64,000 nt of DNA from Rickettsiales bacterium (GCA_041396965.1 JAWKXN010000001.1:225890-289889), one strand, 5' to 3'. Counted from the first letter of the stretch, positions 9,399 through 54,939 are shown. Notes: generated by a model from the letters alone, not told the origin. Translations and numbers: made by a program.

Positions 9399-9488
9399 GG
9401 AAGAGTGGCCGAGTGGTTTAAGGCAGCAGTCTTGAAAACTGCCGAGGTGGCAACGCCTCCGTGAGTTCGAATCTCACCTCTTCCGCCA
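9399..9488 (+). tRNA. tRNA-Ser (TGA), encoded CCA
   Basis: GGAAGAG/CTCTTCC acceptor stem, anticodon loop CTTGAAA, long variable arm, GTTCGAATC T-loop, 90 nt. Confidence 0.97.
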
Positions 9489-9504
9489 CTACCCCAAAAA
9501 TTGA

Positions 9505-9524
9505 TTTGGGACAAATTTGGGACA
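9505..9524 (+). repeat. tandem TTTGGGACA direct repeat (integrase arm-site-like) just 3' of tRNA-Ser
   Basis: TTTGGGACA at 9505-9513 and 9516-9524. Such short tandem repeats flank tyrosine-integrase att sites (inference). Confidence 0.5.
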
Positions 9525-9619
9525 GTAAACCACAACAGCTATCCACAAAATTATAGAAACTCCTACAGGGGCTTGCAAAAGTCTAGGGGGGCGTTTTCCT
9601 CAGGGGAAATTTAGAAATC

Positions 9620-11085
9620 ATATTTCACGATAAAAAATCAGCAAAAAATTTTGTTTTGTCCTGCTCACTGTCCAATTATTGTCCATTATCTTGATCCGAG
9701 GGCGGAACACGCCTTGAAATTTACCCCAGGCAGCAATATTTTTTGCGCCAATGCATGGAGTGCAAAATCCTGTATAGCTAAACAAGATGTTTGGCTGTGG
9801 GAGCATCCAGAAATGCAGCAAGAAATTCTGGAGCTGTCACGCGCAGTAAATCATGAAGGTTTTAATCATCTTGATAAAGCTCGGAAATGCCAAATCCTAA
9901 CTAATCGTGCGAATGCTCTAAATACCGCAGGGCGATTTATAGACGCCATTGAAGCATGGGATCATGCACTGCGTGTAATACCAAGATTTGCCATGGCTCA
10001 CGGCACAGAGGGCATGGGCTGAAATATTATGCTATGGCGCTATATGACCCCAGACATTGCGGTATTCTTTTTGTTACATGCAATGATGCATTTCAAGCAG
10101 CAGCAGGTGGATTGTATGACTCGGAATACCCGTCTGAGACTAAGCAGGCCTTTGTATCATCGGCAGAGCGTATAGCGCTTGCTGTTCCGCTCAATGACAT
10201 AAGAGCCAACCAAAATCTTGATAATTTCACCGGTAAAAGTAAGCACGAACAATCATAGGCGCTGGTGTTTGGAAGAACGACTGTTCCTGAATCCGCTCAA
10301 TGATCTAGGGATACACCCATTGCAGCACATGATGTTTTAACTCTTCCAGGCATTACAGAACATATCAACGCACGAAACAGCTCATATCATATGCCGCCGA
10401 TCATTGGATTTTATAACCAAATGAAACAAGAATTTGCCTGGCGCGTTACATGCTTTTGAAGGGTTACATAAGTCCGGTCCACATTTTCGGATCGCGATGT
10501 CCTGCCGTATAATACGCTGGATTATCCTTCCTATTCACTGGCTACAGAGCAAGTACGATTAAGCTATCGAGCCATTTATTCCATACTGATAAAATCGCGT
10601 TCTTTATCAATCGCTATTGGGAATTGGGGATGCGCCTTTAAAGACGTTAATTTCAAAAAGTATGGTACAGTAAAAATGAAATTTTGCATCTCGCTTTTAA
10701 CGCTTATGAAAATTGGCCGTTGTGCGGTTTATTTTGGCTGTCGAAAGAAATTTTTGATGAACAATTAAAGCAGAGTACAAATCCTATGCACGGGAGTTGC
10801 ATGAAATTCAAATCACTTAGAGCATAAATATCTTCAGGTTCATCAGGGATGGCTTCCGGATAGATCAGACAATGCCGATGGACGAATTTAGGAAAAGCAA
10901 TTTCAATAGATCAATTGGAAGCAAAAGCACTCCGCATAGCGAAAAATTGTAAGCTCCGCTCTTATTTATCTGTCTCTAGGAAAGAAAAACAGACTGTAGC
11001 AGGTGATGCAAGAATCAAAGTAGGAAGAAATGAACAATGCCCTTGTAGATCAGGCAAGAAATTCAAAAAATGCTGTGGACGTTAA
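9620..11085 (+). pseudogene. frameshifted TPR + LA2681-family HEPN + SEC-C motif protein
   Basis: Fragments stitched across frames: RRWCLEERLFLNPLNDLG, IAAHDVLTLP, FYNQMKQEF, YNTLDYPSYSL, N-H-L-E-H-K-Y-L (10811-10834) and a terminal KVGRNEQCPCRSGKKFKKCCGR* (stop 11083-11085). Many 1-bp deletions; start uncertain. Confidence 0.8.
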
Positions 11086-11230
11086 ATGTCATATATTACC
11101 GTAAGTAAGATTTTACCATAGTAATCTGGAATAGAAAAATCTTATTTCAAATGACCATATATTTACTGCTCTCATCCTTCTGAAACATAAAACACTAGAT
11201 TTCTCTCAGCGGATTTTTTTTATTTTGTTT

Positions 11231-11256
11231 GTAACTAATAATGTTGTATATACGAA
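11231..11256 (+). promoter_or_regulatory. SigF/ECF16-type promoter GTAACT-N16-CGAA upstream of the RiPP precursor
   Basis: gtaact aataatgttgtatata cgaa, ending 65 nt before the ATG at 11322; matches the Caulobacter sigmaF consensus GTAACC-N16-CGAA with one mismatch. Confidence 0.7.
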
Positions 11257-11321
11257 TTCGTAGTTATAACATTTTTATTACAGATGTTATTTTATCAACG
11301 ATCTTAATTTAGGAGATAATT

Positions 11322-11582
11322 ATGAAAAGCAACAAGAAACTTGCTATATCCGCGCTTGCCGGTCTTATGGCTATGGGTGCTATGGCTGTAAGTCCAGCGG
11401 TGGCTAATGATGGCGGTAAAGCATCTTGTAAAAATAAAAGTGGGTGTAAAGGTAAAGCCGCTGTAGAAAAAGCTAACTGCAAAACAGCGGATGGCAAAGA
11501 AAAGAATTCCTGCAAAGGTCAGGATACCGATGATAAGAACAAATGTAAGGGACATGACGCGTCTCATAAGGATGGCAAGTAA
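11322..11582 (+). CDS. secreted Cys-Lys-repeat RiPP precursor (bufferin/oxazolin-like metallophore precursor)
   Basis: AGGAG RBS; Sec signal ending AVA; mature part has five Cys, all in CK dipeptides (KASCK, SGCK, KANCK, KNSCK, KNKCK); directly upstream of the MNIO gene. Confidence 0.8.
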   Translation: MKSNKKLAISALAGLMAMGAMAVSPAVANDGGKASCKNKSGCKGKAAVEKANCKTADGKEKNSCKGQDTDDKNKCKGHDASHKDGK

Positions 11583-11614
11583 TAGCCAGTCAATCATTTG
11601 ATTATGATATATAG

Positions 11615-11641
11615 TGGCGGGGGCGGTTTTTGTCTCCGCCA
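11615..11641 (+). terminator. 10-bp stem-loop between precursor and maturase
   Basis: TGGCGGGGGC-ggttttt-GTCTCCGCCA (two G-U pairs), followed by a T-rich tract. Confidence 0.6.
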
Positions 11642-11677
11642 TTTGTTTATACTCATTTTGTATGATTTTTATTCATA

Positions 11678-13384
11678 ATGAATATAGAAATTATAGTAAT
11701 GAAAACAGATATAGAAAGATTGCCTAATCTCGGTTTTGGGCTTGGTCTTAGAGCCAAGCACTATCCATATATTCTTGAGCACAAGCCAAAAATTGACTGG
11801 TTTGAGATTATTTCCGAGAATTTTATGGATACTGACGGCAGACCAAAACGGAATTTATCACGTATCAAAGAGCATTATCCTATTGTGATGCATGGCGTGG
11901 CGATGTCCATAGGTACGGTTGATCCGCTTAATTCAGAATATTTGCGAAAATTAAAAGCTTTAATGGAGTGGGTAAAACCAGCTTGGATATCCGATCATTT
12001 ATGTTGGACGGGAGTGGCTCACAAAAACACACATGACCTTTTGCCGGTACCCTACACTGAAGAGGCGTTAAAGCACATAGTTCAGCGTATCAAAGAAGTT
12101 CAGGATTATTTGGAATGTAAGATCGCTCTTGAAAATCCCTCAACCTATCTTGAGTTCAAAACATCCCATATTCCTGAAGCGGAATTCATTGCCCGTATGG
12201 CGGAGGAATCCGACTGTAATCTTTTGCTAGATGTAAATAACGTCTATGTGACTTGCTATAATCATAGGCTTGATCCAAAAAAATATTTGGATAGCGTTCC
12301 TATAGATAAGGTTATTCAAATACATCTTTCAGGTCACACCAATAAGAATACACATATTATAGACACGCATGATGATCATGTAATAGATGAGGTGTGGAAT
12401 CTATATAAATACGTGGTATCCAAAGCCGGACGTGTGCCTAATACGATGGTAGAGTGGGATGATAATATACCGGAGTTTCCGGTATTAAACGCTGAGTTGG
12501 AAAAGGCGAGGGGGGCAGCCGAGAATTTCGCTGATTATACGCTTCCAGATTTAGCGCGAGAGAATATCCCACAGCTTGCGAATCGTAAAACATCTCTTAT
12601 TGAGGAACAGAAACACATGCAGCGCGCGGTCATGGAAGGTGGTAGTTTTGATAGCGATCCGACAAGCTGGATCCGTAGTAAGGAATCATTCGCGCCACAC
12701 GAGCAATTATCAGTGTATATTAACGCTTATCGTTATCGTCTGAATGACGTGGTCGTAGAGGACTATCCAGTATTAAAATATTATCTTGGTGAGAAACTAT
12801 TTGAGGATACGGTGTGGGATTTTGTAAATACAGCACGACCTGATAATTTTAATATCGCGCGCTACGCGGCGAAGTTTCCAGAGTTTGTGGGTAAAAATAT
12901 TTCAGATGATATATTCGCTTATGAGTTATGTCAGTTGGAGACTGCCATAACGCAACTTGCTGATTGTGCTGAGACCGAAGTTTTAGAACAGAAACATCTT
13001 ACGGGTATGACACCGGAAAAATTAATGGAATCAGTTTTATATCCAAGAAAAGCTTTGCGACTTTTCGCTTTTGCTCATCAGGTAAATGCCTATTATCAGG
13101 CGGTAATGGATGATGAAGAGCCTGAGTCTTTCATTTTAGGAAATAGCCATGTCGCCGTTTTTCGCCATGAGGATTCTATGTGGCGTATGGATTTGGAAGA
13201 GCAAGAATATAACCTGTTAAAAAAATTGTTTAGCGGCGCAAAAGTCGGAGAGGCGTTAGATAACGTGGATGAATCCGCTGGCGATAAACTTGCGGAATGG
13301 TTTTCACGGTGGATAAATAATGGGTTGCTCGCAAGTCATGAATCTATGAATGATCAAGAAAAACATATACATGAAACAGCGTAA
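11678..13384 (+). CDS. fused multinuclear non-heme iron oxidase (DUF692/MNIO, BufB-like) + DUF2063 partner domain (BufC/HvfC-like)
   Basis: N-terminal half: [56 protein letters not shown]-terminal half: [12 protein letters not shown]...[11 protein letters not shown]. The ATG at 11699 is the likely start. Confidence 0.9.
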
Positions 13385-13426: not shown

Positions 13427-14335
13427 TTGTATATGGGACATGGTCACGATCATGGAGAAAAAGACATGGCTGATGGGCGGCTTATTGCCGCTGTTGGCAT
13501 AAATCTTCTGCTCACGATAGCGCAGGTGATTGGCGGTATAATTTCTGGCAGCCTCTCACTTGTCGCCGACGCTCTTCATAATTTTAGTGACGCGGCTTCT
13601 TTGGTAATAGCGCTTTTCGCGCGTAAAATAGGACGCAAGCCACCTGATGAGCTTAGAACATTCGGGTATAAAAGAGCGGAAATTATAGCTGCTCTTATCA
13701 ATCTGGTGACTTTAGTTATTGTTGGTGTTTATCTTATATATGAAGCTCTGTGGCGTTTTTTTAAGCCAGAGATGGTAGAGGGATGGTTGGTTATAATAGT
13801 CGCTTCCATCGCTTTGATTATAGATGTGGTAACCGCCATTCTTACTTATAATATGTCAAAGAATAGCGTAAATATGAAAGCGGCGTTTTTGCATAATCTT
13901 TCGGACGCTTTATCATCGATATGTGTTATAATAGCCGGAAGTTTAATTATACTTTACGACTGGTACTGGGTAGATAGCTTCTTAACCTTGCTGATCGCTG
14001 GATATGTGTTGTATCAAGGTTTTAGCATGTTGCCATCTACCATTCATTTGCTTATGGAAGGTACTCCAGCTCATCTATCAATAAGTAAGGTAATATCAGC
14101 TATGGAAGAAATAGAGGGGGTTGATAGCGTACATCACGTACATGTTTGGCAGTTGGATGAACATCATAACGCGCTGGAAGCTCACATTGTAAGTGGCGTT
14201 ACTCAGATAAGCGAGATAGAGAAAATAAAAACAAGTCTTAAATCCATGCTTAAAGATAATTTTTCAGTTGGGCACTCAACATTAGAGTTTGAGCATGCTA
14301 ATAACACTGATTGTCAGTATAGTAACTTACGGTAA
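13427..14335 (+). CDS. cation diffusion facilitator (CzcD-like Co/Zn/Cd exporter)
   Basis: His-rich N-terminus GHGHDH, SLSLVADALHNFSD, TFGYKRAE, AFLHNLSD and HHVHVWQL. The ATG at 13433 is the likely start. Confidence 0.93.
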   Translation: MYMGHGHDHGEKDMADGRLIAAVGINLLLTIAQVIGGIISGSLSLVADALHNFSDAASLVIALFARKIGRKPPDELRTFGYKRAEIIAALINLVTLVIVGVYLIYEALWRFFKPEMVEGWLVIIVASIALIIDVVTAILTYNMSKNSVNMKAAFLHNLSDALSSICVIIAGSLIILYDWYWVDSFLTLLIAGYVLYQGFSMLPSTIHLLMEGTPAHLSISKVISAMEEIEGVDSVHHVHVWQLDEHHNALEAHIVSGVTQISEIEKIKTSLKSMLKDNFSVGHSTLEFEHANNTDCQYSNLR

Positions 14336-14361
14336 AGTTAACGCGAATAACTATAACATGG

Positions 14362-15582
14362 TTGTTTATGGAAAAAACTAAAGAGAAGACAAAAGCTGGG
14401 CATAGAGAGTTTGTCATGCTTATGGCGGTACTTATGTCGGTAGTGGCGATTTCTATAGACGCTATGCTGCCAGCGCTTGGCTTTATCAGAGACGATCTAG
14501 GTGTATCCCATCCTAATCATGGGCAATATATAGTTGGGATTATTTTTGCTGGAATGGCAATCGGACAGCTTATTAATGGAGTACTTTCTGACGCTTTTGG
14601 ACGGAAAAAAATTCTTTATGTAAGCCTCACTATGTATTTTATCGGAAGTATAATCTGTGTTTTCGCGAATAGCCTTAGTATAATGCTCGTCGGGCGCTTC
14701 ATACAAGGTATAGGTGTTTCTGGGCCTTATATATCGGTCATGTCCATAATCCGTGATCGTTATAGTGGGCGTGAGATGGCACGTATTATGTCGCTGGTTC
14801 TTACCATATTTATCATGATACCTGTGATCGCTCCCGCTGTTGGACAGTTGATATTATTTTTTGCCTCATGGCGGTATATTTTTGTCATGTATGTAATTTA
14901 CTCTATATCAGTTGGGCTGTGGGTATATTTTAGGCTAGAGGAAACTCTAATACCAGAAAATCGTGTGCCGTGTCGTATTGCTAACATTACTCATGGAGTG
15001 AAGACCGTATTGTCAAACCGCGTAACACTATGTTATACGCTCGCTCTTGGTTGTATATTTGGCGCGCTTAACGGTGAGCTTAATTCAGTTCAGCAGATTT
15101 TTCAGGTGCAGTACAAGGTGGGCGATATGTTTGCTGTGTATTTTGGACTACAGGCTTTAGCCTTTGGCGCGGCTTCCTTTGTGAATTACCGGTTAGTTGA
15201 TCGTTTTGGTATGCGTTACCTATGTATTTTCGCCACCAGCTTTATTGTTTTTATATCTTTATCTTTTCTAATATTAATAGCTATAACAGATGCTACGTTC
15301 ATTATGTACTTTTTATATGGCATGTTTTTGTTGTTTAGCATTGGTATTTTGTTCGGCAATCTCAACGCTATCGCTATGGAACCAATGGGTCATATAGCTG
15401 GTATGGCATCCGCTATTATTGGGTGTATATCAACAATTATCGGCATATTATTTGGAACAGTGATAGGTCAGATGTACGACGGAAGTCTTACTCCTATTAT
15501 CGCTGGGTTTTTTGTTATGGGAAATATTGCTTTAATTATTATGCTGTATGAGAATAGAAAAGAGAAAATTCTTATAAGGTAG
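14362..15582 (+). CDS. Bcr/CflA family MFS efflux transporter
   Basis: AISIDAMLPAL, GVLSDAFGRK, RDRYSGREMARIMS and GNLNAIAMEPMGHIAG. Confidence 0.92.
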   Translation: MFMEKTKEKTKAGHREFVMLMAVLMSVVAISIDAMLPALGFIRDDLGVSHPNHGQYIVGIIFAGMAIGQLINGVLSDAFGRKKILYVSLTMYFIGSIICVFANSLSIMLVGRFIQGIGVSGPYISVMSIIRDRYSGREMARIMSLVLTIFIMIPVIAPAVGQLILFFASWRYIFVMYVIYSISVGLWVYFRLEETLIPENRVPCRIANITHGVKTVLSNRVTLCYTLALGCIFGALNGELNSVQQIFQVQYKVGDMFAVYFGLQALAFGAASFVNYRLVDRFGMRYLCIFATSFIVFISLSFLILIAITDATFIMYFLYGMFLLFSIGILFGNLNAIAMEPMGHIAGMASAIIGCISTIIGILFGTVIGQMYDGSLTPIIAGFFVMGNIALIIMLYENRKEKILIR

Positions 15583-52244: not shown

Positions 52245-52901
52245 TCAATTAGTCGCTAAAGAACTTCTTTTAAGAAAAATCTTTCCTAAGAACATACCAG
52301 CCACAGTTACAATAAATACAGGAATGAAGTGCCAAATCATAAGCACCATAGGATCATCGTGTATATCTATGAGGCGCAGCATTATATAGCTAAAGCTAGC
52401 GATTGAAAGCGCTGCCATGCTCCCCGCCCAGCAACAAAGAGTTGGCGCGGCTTTGCGTATTGCCGCAAATATAAATACTCCCATTATGGAGCTGAAAATT
52501 AGTATGCTTGCCATGCATTCATATTCTTTCTTTTTTAGGCAGTCCATCATACTCATAGAATTTTCATGCGTAACTCCTTTAATTAAAAAAAATGCTATTA
52601 TCAGCGTAGGAATTAATGGGATAAACCTTACCCATCCTTTTTGTCCACTATCAGGTAGTGCAAGAAAACTAGCGGCTATCATCGCACTAGTCGCGGCGAT
52701 AAACATTACTGATACATCGAAGATATAGTCACTTTCCCTTATTTTTATGGCAATATCAGAACGCAGTCCAAAAAATACAGTAATAAATGCAAAATATGTA
52801 ATAGTAACAAATATCCATTTGCTTGCCATGATAATGGGATCTGGCAATGGTGGTTCCAGCTTCTCTACAGATAATTTATCTATTAAACTATCCGTATCCA
52901 T
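52245..52901 (-). CDS. nrsF: NrsF (DUF1109) membrane anti-sigma factor
   Basis: Six-TM Cys-containing protein, translationally coupled to the ECF sigma gene. Confidence 0.75.
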   Translation of the reverse strand: MDTDSLIDKLSVEKLEPPLPDPIIMASKWIFVTITYFAFITVFFGLRSDIAIKIRESDYIFDVSVMFIAATSAMIAASFLALPDSGQKGWVRFIPLIPTLIIAFFLIKGVTHENSMSMMDCLKKKEYECMASILIFSSIMGVFIFAAIRKAAPTLCCWAGSMAALSIASFSYIMLRLIDIHDDPMVLMIWHFIPVFIVTVAGMFLGKIFLKRSSLATN

Positions 52902-53458
52902 TATAATTCTCCTTTCTTATTTTTTTCTATCAATATATTATACGCTCTATGTGCCGATACCTTAACCGCTGAAACGCTCATATCCATTTCCGCCGCTACT
53001 TCCTTCGCCGAATATCCTTCAATTTTCATCATGCTTACTATCTTTTGCTGCTTTTCTGGTAATATTGATAAAGCGTCATTTAGTAGTTCGCTTGATTCTT
53101 GGGATTTGGTTACATTATCAGCGAGACTATGTTCAATCTCATTAAAATCTATTTTAATGAGAGCAGATTTCCTATAGTAGGCTCTTAAATAATCTTTTAC
53201 CTTATAGTCGGCTATAGCGAACATCCATGCTTTGAAACTTCTGTCAGTATTATAGGTATGGCTTGATTTATGTATAGCCAGCAGAATTTCTTGTAATATT
53301 TCTTCGTTATCTACCCCGTTTCCAATCTTATTATATAAGAAGCCCTTAATAATTGGGGTAATGCTTCTAAGGAGCTTGTTGTAAGCTTTACTATCACCAG
53401 ATTGAGCCTTTTTCATCAGCTCTTCCAATGATTGAGTATTTGATTGTTTTTCAGTCAT
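52901..53458 (-). CDS. ECF sigma factor (SigF/ECF16-like)
   Basis: MKKAQSGDSKAYNKLL, QEILLAIH...Y...RSFKAWMFAIADYK and VKVSAHRAY; paired with nrsF. Confidence 0.88.
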   Translation of the reverse strand: MTEKQSNTQSLEELMKKAQSGDSKAYNKLLRSITPIIKGFLYNKIGNGVDNEEILQEILLAIHKSSHTYNTDRSFKAWMFAIADYKVKDYLRAYYRKSALIKIDFNEIEHSLADNVTKSQESSELLNDALSILPEKQQKIVSMMKIEGYSAKEVAAEMDMSVSAVKVSAHRAYNILIEKNKKGEL

Positions 53459-53840: not shown

Positions 53841-54437
53841 ATGTATAATGCTGTCATGGGACGCAAACTTACATTCTGTAAAAATAAAGCTTTGGAAGAG
53901 ACAATGTTCCTTTTTTGGGAGAGGGGATATGAGTCTACCTCTGTGCGCGATATAGCTAGCAGACTTAACATCCCTATAGCCTCAGTATATCATAGTTTCG
54001 GTGATAAAGATTCTATTTTTGCCTCAACCATTGATGTTTATTTCAACAAATATATGGTTCCACTCTTTTCTGATTTAAGTAATTATGAAGATGCTAAGCA
54101 GGCAATCATAGATCTTTTTGAGATCATTATAAAAAACTCTAGTAATAGCACACCATCTGGCTGTTACTTGGTGCAAACAGCATCCGATATAATGTCACGT
54201 AATCCTGATATAAAATCAAAGTTAGATGATTATTTTAATTATATAAAATCATCTCTTTACGATTTAATCAAAAAAGCGAAGAACGATAAGCAAATCATAA
54301 CACAAGAAACTAACAGTAATCTGTCTAACTATCTATTTATTCTTATGTTATCAATTAAGAGCTGTTCACGCGTAGGAGCCGACAATAGACAGATCCGTCA
54401 ATATATAAAAACAGCCCTGCAGCCCGTATTTTCTTGA
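53841..54437 (+). CDS. TetR/AcrR family transcriptional regulator
   Basis: LFWERGYESTSVRDI...SVYHSFGDKDSIF...GCYLV. Confidence 0.9.
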   Translation: MYNAVMGRKLTFCKNKALEETMFLFWERGYESTSVRDIASRLNIPIASVYHSFGDKDSIFASTIDVYFNKYMVPLFSDLSNYEDAKQAIIDLFEIIIKNSSNSTPSGCYLVQTASDIMSRNPDIKSKLDDYFNYIKSSLYDLIKKAKNDKQIITQETNSNLSNYLFILMLSIKSCSRVGADNRQIRQYIKTALQPVFS

Positions 54438-54878
54438 CTATAATTTAGCCAGATTACCGAATTTTCTCTTGATAAAATAATCCGCTGATATTCTACCAGA
54501 GCCAAAACACAATATCGTACCAAGCAAGAACGACCAGTAATAATGCTGTTCATGTTGCAAATAGGTAATTTGGATAACTGCTGTTATCACTAAAAGAGGG
54601 AGGGTGGCAAAGCGTGAGCCAAGACCAACTGTAAGTAATATCGGGCATAATAGCTCAAATGTAGTGCCAGAAAGAGCCGCGAACTCAGAGTTTACATAAG
54701 GAACCGGATGCTCATCAGTAAATAGCATGACGGTTGTTTCCCAGTCATTAAACTTTAATATTCCAGATTTCCAGAAAATATTCGCTATCCATAGTCTCAT
54801 CCCAAGTAATAGAAAATCTTGTAGGAAAGAAGTTGTCTTAAAAAAGATAGAAAATAGCCTAATAATTTGTTTTTTCAT
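54438..54878 (-). CDS. DoxX family membrane protein (BufD-like)
   Basis: IFWKSGILKF, LFTDEHPVP, FELLCPILL.VGLGSRFA and GSGRISADY. Confidence 0.88.
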   Translation of the reverse strand: MKKQIIRLFSIFFKTTSFLQDFLLLGMRLWIANIFWKSGILKFNDWETTVMLFTDEHPVPYVNSEFAALSGTTFELLCPILLTVGLGSRFATLPLLVITAVIQITYLQHEQHYYWSFLLGTILCFGSGRISADYFIKRKFGNLAKL

Positions 54879-54913: not shown

Positions 54914-54939
54914 TTCGCTATATAATCAAAAAAGGTTAC
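54914..54939 (-). promoter_or_regulatory. perfect SigF-type promoter GTAACC-N16-CGAA for doxX
   Basis: The plus strand reads TTCG ctatataatcaaaaaa GGTTAC; it ends 35 nt before the doxX ATG. Confidence 0.8.

Follow-up and report, generated by a model that had tools for sequence, protein, structure and literature searches.

A bufferin-type locus with a reduced Cys-Lys precursor and a natural BufB-BufC fusion in a Rickettsiales genome

We examined a locus in a 64,000-nucleotide stretch of a Rickettsiales bacterium genome (GCA_041396965.1, JAWKXN010000001.1:225890-289889; the whole stretch is called "the window" and positions are counted from its first letter), in which a gene for a small Cys-rich secreted peptide precedes a gene for one long enzyme. 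The locus, a variant of an already known system, combines a reduced BufA2-like precursor in which the cysteines are followed by lysine (Cys-Lys, or CK), a natural fusion of the maturase BufB with its partner BufC, and a dispersed sigmaF-type regulon. By analogy with characterized relatives, we consider it quite probable that the product is a ribosomally made peptide with post-translational modifications (RiPP) of the bufferin/captophorin type, with 5-thiooxazoles formed on CK cysteines, export by Sec and metal chelation in the periplasm. The elements of the locus are as follows.

11231-11256, plus strand: sigmaF-type extracytoplasmic function (ECF) promoter motif GTAACT-N16-CGAA, 65 nt before the precursor ATG and one mismatch from the Caulobacter site
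11322-11582, plus strand: precursor gene, an open reading frame (ORF) of 86 amino acids (aa) with a predicted signal peptide at residues 1-28 (11322-11405)
11613-11643, plus strand: GC-rich stem-loop of 13-14 bp with a T-rich tail, between the precursor and maturase genes (z = -2.9)
11678-13384, plus strand: fused maturase gene, 568 aa (ORF, Pfam, NCBIfam and AlphaFold2, AF2)
11735-12517, plus strand: MNIO TIM barrel, approximately residues 20-280 of the maturase (Pfam and fold)
12566-13357, plus strand: DUF2063 helical plus RRE-like domain, approximately residues 297-560 of the maturase (Pfam and fold)

The precursor begins with a predicted signal peptide of the n-h-c type, MKSNKK followed by a hydrophobic stretch, with predicted cleavage between AVA and ND. 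The 58-aa mature part contains five cysteines (C36, C42, C53, C64 and C75), every one of which is followed by Lys and lies in K-x-x-C-K. No Lys-Cys dipeptide or K-C-G motif occurs in the precursor sequence. A preliminary description of the window had reported a secreted 86-aa peptide ahead of a 568-aa ORF, with five cysteines each followed by Lys, and we recovered both ORFs and this pattern. It had counted four rather than five cysteines in K-x-x-C-K, and its account of Asp/His-rich spacers was overstated: the mature part is chiefly Lys-rich (15 K, 7 Asp and only 2 His), with Asp and His mostly within the last 20 residues.

Because 53 homologues with a conserved CK core were found in databases at E<=0.01, the precursor is, judged by its relatives, not a chance ORF. 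The consensus of the homologues (...KASCxGK...EKANCKTADGKEKHACKGKNSCKGNGxDGKNACKGKGSCATDGS) has six cysteines, and the four central ones are the CK sites. Alignment to this family shows that a "HACKGx" unit and the final Cys have been lost from the window precursor, which carries an extra SGCKG that is also found in a subset of relatives. Given that the relatives carry six cysteines and the window copy has lost a unit and the last Cys, the odd number is peculiar to this copy rather than characteristic of the family. The odd count had been taken as a pointer to modified cysteines, and it does not serve that purpose.

The maturase ORF starts 95 nt after the end of the precursor ORF (the source gene call is 561 aa and starts seven codons later, at 11699). 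PF05114 (MbnB_TglH_ChrH, the MNIO family) covers residues 20-280 with 358 bits, PF09836 (DUF2063) covers residues 311-404 and the HvfC profile residues 340-535; about 25 aa link the MNIO and partner halves. The enzyme matches the NCBIfam model MNIO_BufB (NF050167) over profile positions 1-262 of 262 with 365.4 bits against a cut-off of 310. The HvfB (257.7 against 360 bits), ApyH, ChrH and MbnB (54 against 325 bits) models all score below their cut-offs.

An AF2 model built with 37 fused homologues as input (pLDDT 87, pTM 0.84) has an N-terminal half that superposes on 3BWW (TMt 0.87) and also on TglH and MbnB. The C-terminal half modelled alone (pLDDT 87) had only three PDB matches at E<=0.001, two entries of the MNIO partner TglI and NGO1945/3DEE, and it covered the whole 3DEE chain (TMt 0.74). 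NGO1945/3DEE is the prototype of the DUF2063 plus RRE partner. With TglI and 3DEE as its sole matches, the latter over the entire chain, the partner half is complete as modelled. The Pfam and fold matches agree with the earlier statement that a DUF692 TIM barrel and its partner are joined in one chain. The conserved His/Asp/Glu motifs (MHG, SDHL, LEN, LDVNN, IHLSGH, DTHD and EWDD) align with 3BWW. Across the 37 fused homologues, including the window enzyme, more than 150 columns are invariant; the window enzyme retains every one, and thus we see no sign of enzyme decay. The Asp that follows the catalytic Asp (in EWDD) was considered as a marker of Cys-Lys enzymes and rejected, as it was not discriminating in our sample.

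We compared the precursor with the described families. The curated BufA2 model (NCBIfam NF050166, BUF_6/12Cys) gives the window precursor 18.3 bits against a cut-off of 60, and membership of BufA2 by this model is rejected. Its homologues reach 19-31 bits, also below the cut-off, whereas the true BufA2 genes found in sampling 401 genomes of the class to which the window genome belongs score 77-92 bits; no score lies between ~47 and 77. Weak scores with this model mean little, because it also matches the DUF2282 BufA1 peptide of the same genome (28 bits). BufA2 peptides have six or twelve cysteines, with a CysI-CysVI disulfide pair and four central modified cysteines. The window precursor has five and its C-terminal one is gone; the consensus of its family has six, in the same order as BufA2. 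The Sec signal peptide and the position directly before the MNIO gene, both features of BufA2, are found in the window precursor. The two outermost cysteines of Caulobacter BufA2 are unmodified; each of the four central ones has lost 4 Da, and absorbance of the product lies near 305 nm (Leprevost et al., 2024; PMC11626156).

We extracted 19 true BufA2 cores (VKCxGxNxCKGxxxCKTxxxxCKGxNxCKGxGW...C..GG) and compared mature regions as profiles using hhalign. The window precursor family aligned with BufA2 with 93.8% probability over a 29-column CK core and with DUF2282 with 7.6%; BufA2 and DUF2282 aligned with 95% over the whole fold. Neither Pfam DUF2282 nor any other Pfam family matched the window precursor at E<=0.01, and on this ground and the 7.6% alignment we rejected membership of BufA1/DUF2282. 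Membership of the HvfA/EGKCG (Lys-Cys) group was also rejected, given the absence of a K-C dipeptide and the HvfB score below cut-off. In its alignments, the precursor is a BufA2-like Cys-Lys type without the C-terminal folded element of BufA2.

Cys-Lys precursors are a recognized group of captophorins, typified by Caulobacter BufA2, and NACKG is among the common 5-mers listed for captophorins (Gadgil et al., PMC13097082). The window locus has what defines this group: multiple Cys-Lys in the precursor (all five cysteines), an MNIO enzyme and a DUF2063/RRE (PME1) partner, here fused. Sites in which Cys is followed by a charged residue, NACKG among them, are not processed by the Lys-Cys enzyme FonBC (Gadgil et al., PMC13097082). 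In the same source, the HvfA oxazolin product has been revised to 5-thiooxazole and the name captophorins proposed, which supersedes the earlier mention of HvfA as an oxazolin. The distinct CK precursor class of the preliminary description is real in that the context is Cys-Lys and not Lys-Cys-Gly, but it has already been described and it aligns to the CK core of BufA2. None of the BufA1, BufA2 and HvfA families that had been proposed for comparison takes in the precursor by its model or motif, and the profile alignment links it to the BufA2 core. As to whether it sits squarely in a described family, the BufA2 model speaks against this, but the motif-based Cys-Lys group accommodates it.

The fusion proved to be common. 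A length-restricted protein search returned 4079 proteins at E<=1e-5, and the best 120 of these are all fused (534-594 aa, both Pfam domains); their sources are metagenome-assembled genomes (MAGs) of Alphaproteobacteria, Rickettsiales and Bdellovibrionales as well as cultured Methylophilus. By tblastn on genome contigs, 20 of 30 related loci are truly fused, and the remaining 10 (L033-L042), which looked fused in the tblastn table, have split genes in different frames or no partner. The fused gene is present in 14 of the 44 genomes of the GTDB family to which the window belongs, and two other species of the same genus have it at only 63-71% identity. In Methylophilus sp. TWE2 (CP012020.1), a fused enzyme of 548 aa and DoxX are encoded along with a peptide of this family that has six cysteines. 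In nearly every fused locus examined, the fused gene has a gene for a CK-type peptide with a signal peptide directly upstream.

These searches indicate that the natural BufB-BufC fusion is widespread and not special to the window locus; an engineered HvfB-HvfC fusion has, moreover, already been published. The natural fusion, a large clade, is common in databases yet unstudied, and no published description of natural MNIO-DUF2063 fusions was found in the literature searched. The comparison of fused and split MNIO enzymes suggested in the preliminary description was made with a quick maximum-likelihood tree of 84 MNIO domains. All 32 fused domains fall on one side of a branch with SH-aLRT 97. 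Their sister group (support 99) is made up of split, DUF2282-associated enzymes from the same lineage, 19 in all, among them the second enzyme of this genome; the canonical BufB2 enzymes form a separate clade. A single origin of the fusion is indicated by the tree but not proven, because the sample was gathered by similarity.

Two departures from the window type were seen among the fused loci. The precursor of L016/L083 (L016 3631-3933) has repeated SC-S/G-GKEGCGSKDGKEK units and no Cys before Lys; thus the fused clade would also serve non-CK substrates. In Micavibrio-like MAGs (L024, L025, L027 and L031), the fused enzymes are preceded by long CK peptides with 10-11 cysteines that end in ...NYND. 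There are 9-12 nt between the peptide and enzyme genes, the hairpin is absent and the sigmaF-like motif has a 15-nt spacing. This looks like a separate sub-type.

Of 20 related loci in which a gap separates the two genes, 19 have a GC-rich hairpin of 11-14 bp, different in sequence, at the position of the window stem-loop. It is probably a partial terminator or attenuator, and with partial termination precursor mRNA would therefore exceed enzyme mRNA.

The sigmaF site of Caulobacter is GTAACC-N16-CGAA (PMC3511200). In addition to the motif before the precursor, the window contains the following elements.

14322-14347, plus strand: second sigmaF-type motif, GTAACT-N16-CGAA, overlapping the end of the gene for a cation diffusion facilitator (CDF) transporter and 20 nt before the ATG (14368) of a major facilitator superfamily (MFS) transporter gene
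52245-52901, minus strand: NrsF anti-sigma gene, found by tblastn with the NrsF of relatives (Pfam NrsF, 98 bits)
52901-53458, minus strand: ECF sigma factor gene, found by tblastn with the flanking sigma factors of relatives (Pfam Sigma70_r2/r4_2)
54438-54878, minus strand: DoxX-family gene, BufD-like (Pfam DoxX, 48 bits)
54914-54939, minus strand: perfect sigmaF-type motif, GTAACC-N16-CGAA, 35 nt before the DoxX ATG

GTAAC-N17-CGAA matches the window three times, where 0.37 matches are expected and none of 100 shuffles reaches three. Genome-wide, GTAACY-N16-CGAA is not enriched (10 matches against 7.2 in shuffles); only the placement of the motif ahead of five stress-related genes is informative. 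Five of the 10 matches lie 20-85 nt before the precursor, the MFS gene, DoxX, BufA1 and an operon encoding a small membrane protein, MsrB and MsrA. Among related fused loci, 20 of 28 have the motif before the precursor, and several more have it with a one-base change in spacing. The usual layout in relatives is ECF sigma - NrsF - CK peptide - fused enzyme - DoxX, and ECF sigma, NrsF and DoxX are the recurrent neighbours of fused genes in 34 fused loci. Both hallmarks of a sigmaF/NrsF regulon, a motif before the operon and a sigma/NrsF pair in the genome, are found here. The pair at 52245-53458 is the likely regulator of the bufferin locus, which is probably transcribed as part of a sigmaF-type regulon. 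A TetR-family regulator gene (53841-54437, plus strand) adjoins DoxX and ends at its 3' end.

The genome (2.18 Mb, two contigs) has a second, canonical locus outside the window (L002, C1:613988-617770), with a DUF2282 BufA1 precursor, a split BufB of 273 aa and a BufC of 251 aa. GTAACT-N16-CGAA is found 72 nt before its BufA1 precursor. A divergent operon at this locus encodes a 57-aa Cys-rich membrane protein, MsrB and MsrA. As this operon carries its own copy of the motif, it suggests that methionine-sulfoxide repair is part of the same regulon.

Two transporter genes follow the maturase.

13427-14335, plus strand: CDF transporter (PF01545, 166 bits; TIGR01297, 255 bits; ZitB equivalog below cut-off)
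14362-15582, plus strand: Bcr/CflA-family MFS efflux transporter (TIGR00710, 205.9 bits against a cut-off of 200.9)

The CDF gene lies on the maturase strand, starts 43 nt beyond the maturase gene and is probably co-transcribed with it. We rejected it as a conserved member of the cluster, as it is downstream in only 2 of the 34 fused loci, those of the window and L021. The L021 peptide is a short CK-only form with four cysteines, and the CDF gene follows the fused gene. In the region upstream of the bufferin locus (9399-11300), ~1.8 kb with only short or overlapping ORFs come after tRNA-Ser (9399-9488); one of these ORFs, of 56 aa, ends in a SEC-C motif (10915-11085). The region may represent a tRNA-linked site with decayed sequence. 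Base composition around the locus gave no indication of a foreign island.

The best reading of the locus is that heterocycles are formed on the precursor cysteines. The 86-aa precursor would be made in the cytoplasm and bound by the fused BufB-BufC via its C-terminal DUF2063/RRE half. The multinuclear-iron TIM-barrel half would then use O2 to oxidize Cys-Lys cysteines, whichever of the five are substrates, by four electrons each to 5-thiooxazoles. Following Sec export and a signal peptidase cut after AVA28, a Lys-rich periplasmic peptide of 58 residues would chelate excess metal, by analogy copper. The sigmaF/NrsF-type ECF pair 40 kb away would drive transcription via GTAACT-N16-CGAA, and the hairpin would let only part of the transcripts into the enzyme and CDF genes, such that substrate exceeds enzyme.

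Several observations weigh against this reading. The precursor fails the curated BufA2 model (18.3 against 60 bits), and as neither the C-terminal folded part nor the CysI-CysVI pair is present, it may depart from BufA2 in structure and in metal stoichiometry. In the tree, canonical BufB2 is more distant from the fused clade than are the DUF2282-type (Buf1) maturases found in the same lineage. The Asp of EWDD, which has been proposed to read the substrate Lys, also occurs in the split Buf1-type enzyme of this genome, and the residue after the catalytic Asp is A, D or G in the sampled BufB2 enzymes. DoxX, sigma and NrsF are not adjacent to the window locus but ~40 kb away, and to this is added the lack of genome-wide motif enrichment. 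Lastly, what is known of the fused enzymes and this precursor subfamily comes from sequence and prediction.

We weighed four other explanations. Fused enzymes with short unstructured CK-only peptides could form a functionally separate bufferin branch, whose metal is not copper (Zn, Cd or Co) or which hands metal over to the CDF transporter. This would follow from the missing disulfide pair, the lack of an adjacent DoxX, the probable co-transcription of CDF and the separate motif of the MFS gene, and the conserved hairpin would then fix the ratio of peptide to enzyme; we think it rather unlikely. It is improbable that the enzyme family carries out some other chemistry on the CK-only substrate, such as formation of an oxazolone-thioamide as in methanobactin, or another MNIO reaction. 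MNIOs do catalyze many reactions, the fused clade stands apart from the characterized enzymes, and 5-thiooxazole and oxazolone-thioamide are isomeric and have been confused before (PMC13097082). However, the window enzyme passes the BufB equivalog and fails MbnB, ChrH, ApyH and HvfB, and every MNIO-PME1 product re-examined so far carries 5-thiooxazole (PMC13097082).

The peptide might instead be an unmodified Cys/Lys-rich thiolate metal binder, with the enzyme acting elsewhere, for example on BufA1. The window copy has lost two family cysteines and has no adjacent DoxX, and a DUF2282-type precursor does exist in the genome, but that precursor has its own split BufB and BufC adjoining. Moreover, the CK peptide adjoins the fused enzyme in essentially all of the fused loci examined and the promoter and hairpin design is conserved, which makes this explanation very improbable. 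Even less credible is a decaying remnant with no function, its precursor shortened and detached from regulators and DoxX. A repeat unit has indeed been deleted, the terminal Cys is lost, and sigma, NrsF and DoxX are not adjacent, unlike in most relatives. Yet both ORFs, the promoter motif and the hairpin are intact, every invariant enzyme column is kept, and L021, with its similar four-Cys CK-only peptide and CDF gene, suggests a viable variant. We thus favour the bufferin/captophorin-type RiPP with 5-thiooxazoles.

Few RiPPs are as widespread as the bufferins and captophorins, which have ties to copper and heavy-metal stress. Studies of the enzymes are hampered by an MNIO-partner complex that is weak and substoichiometric, and one laboratory built an artificial fusion for study of the iron cofactor. 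The natural fused clade, which includes cultured Methylophilus, offers 1:1 enzymes together with short, simple CK substrates, and the sigmaF-type promoter and hairpin offer testable rules for operon switching and substrate excess. The value is practical and incremental, and the picture of the system is unchanged.

Among known systems, the window locus resembles bufferin 2 of Caulobacter vibrioides (bufA2-bufB2-bufC2) in the Sec signal, the order precursor - MNIO - partner and sigmaF-type control. The central cysteines of both lie in x-C-K-G/T, ANCKT and NSCKG occur in both, and the window family consensus has two flanking cysteines and four CK cysteines. It differs in that B and C are one polypeptide in the window, with an enzyme outside the canonical BufB2 clade, and in that the peptide has no C-terminal "GW...C..GG", has longer CK spacers and, in the window copy, no CysI/CysVI pair. 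With bufferin 1 (DUF2282 BufA1, BufB1/C1/DoxX), it shares a sister enzyme clade and the regulon motif, and such a locus is present in the same genome; however, the window precursor has no DUF2282, and the sampled Buf1 enzymes are split.

The fontiphorin/oxazolin/gonophorin systems (FonABC, HvfABC) have 5-thiooxazole metallophores as products (PMC13097082). They share with the window locus an MNIO with a DUF2063-RRE partner and a Cys-rich, Sec-exported peptide. Unlike the Lys-Cys/EGKCG group, the window peptide has no K-C-G, and its enzyme is below the HvfB cut-off; after the catalytic Asp, 3BWW (on the Lys-Cys side) has Phe whereas the window enzyme has Asp. Compared with co-expression of the two proteins, an engineered HvfB-HvfC fusion gave higher activity and greater homogeneity (bioRxiv 10.64898/2026.07.17.739211). 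In it, as in the window enzyme, the MNIO C-terminus is joined to the partner N-terminus and a 1:1 stoichiometry is fixed. That fusion is artificial, without a linker and of the Lys-Cys group, while the window enzyme is one of a large clade of natural fusions, with a linker of ~25 residues between its halves. Finally, methanobactin MbnABC also combines an MNIO TIM barrel (the window fold matches 7DZ9, 7TCR and 7FC0) with a partner protein and acts on Cys of a ribosomal peptide, but its partner MbnC is not DUF2063/RRE, its precursor has no Sec signal and its product is an oxazolone-thioamide.

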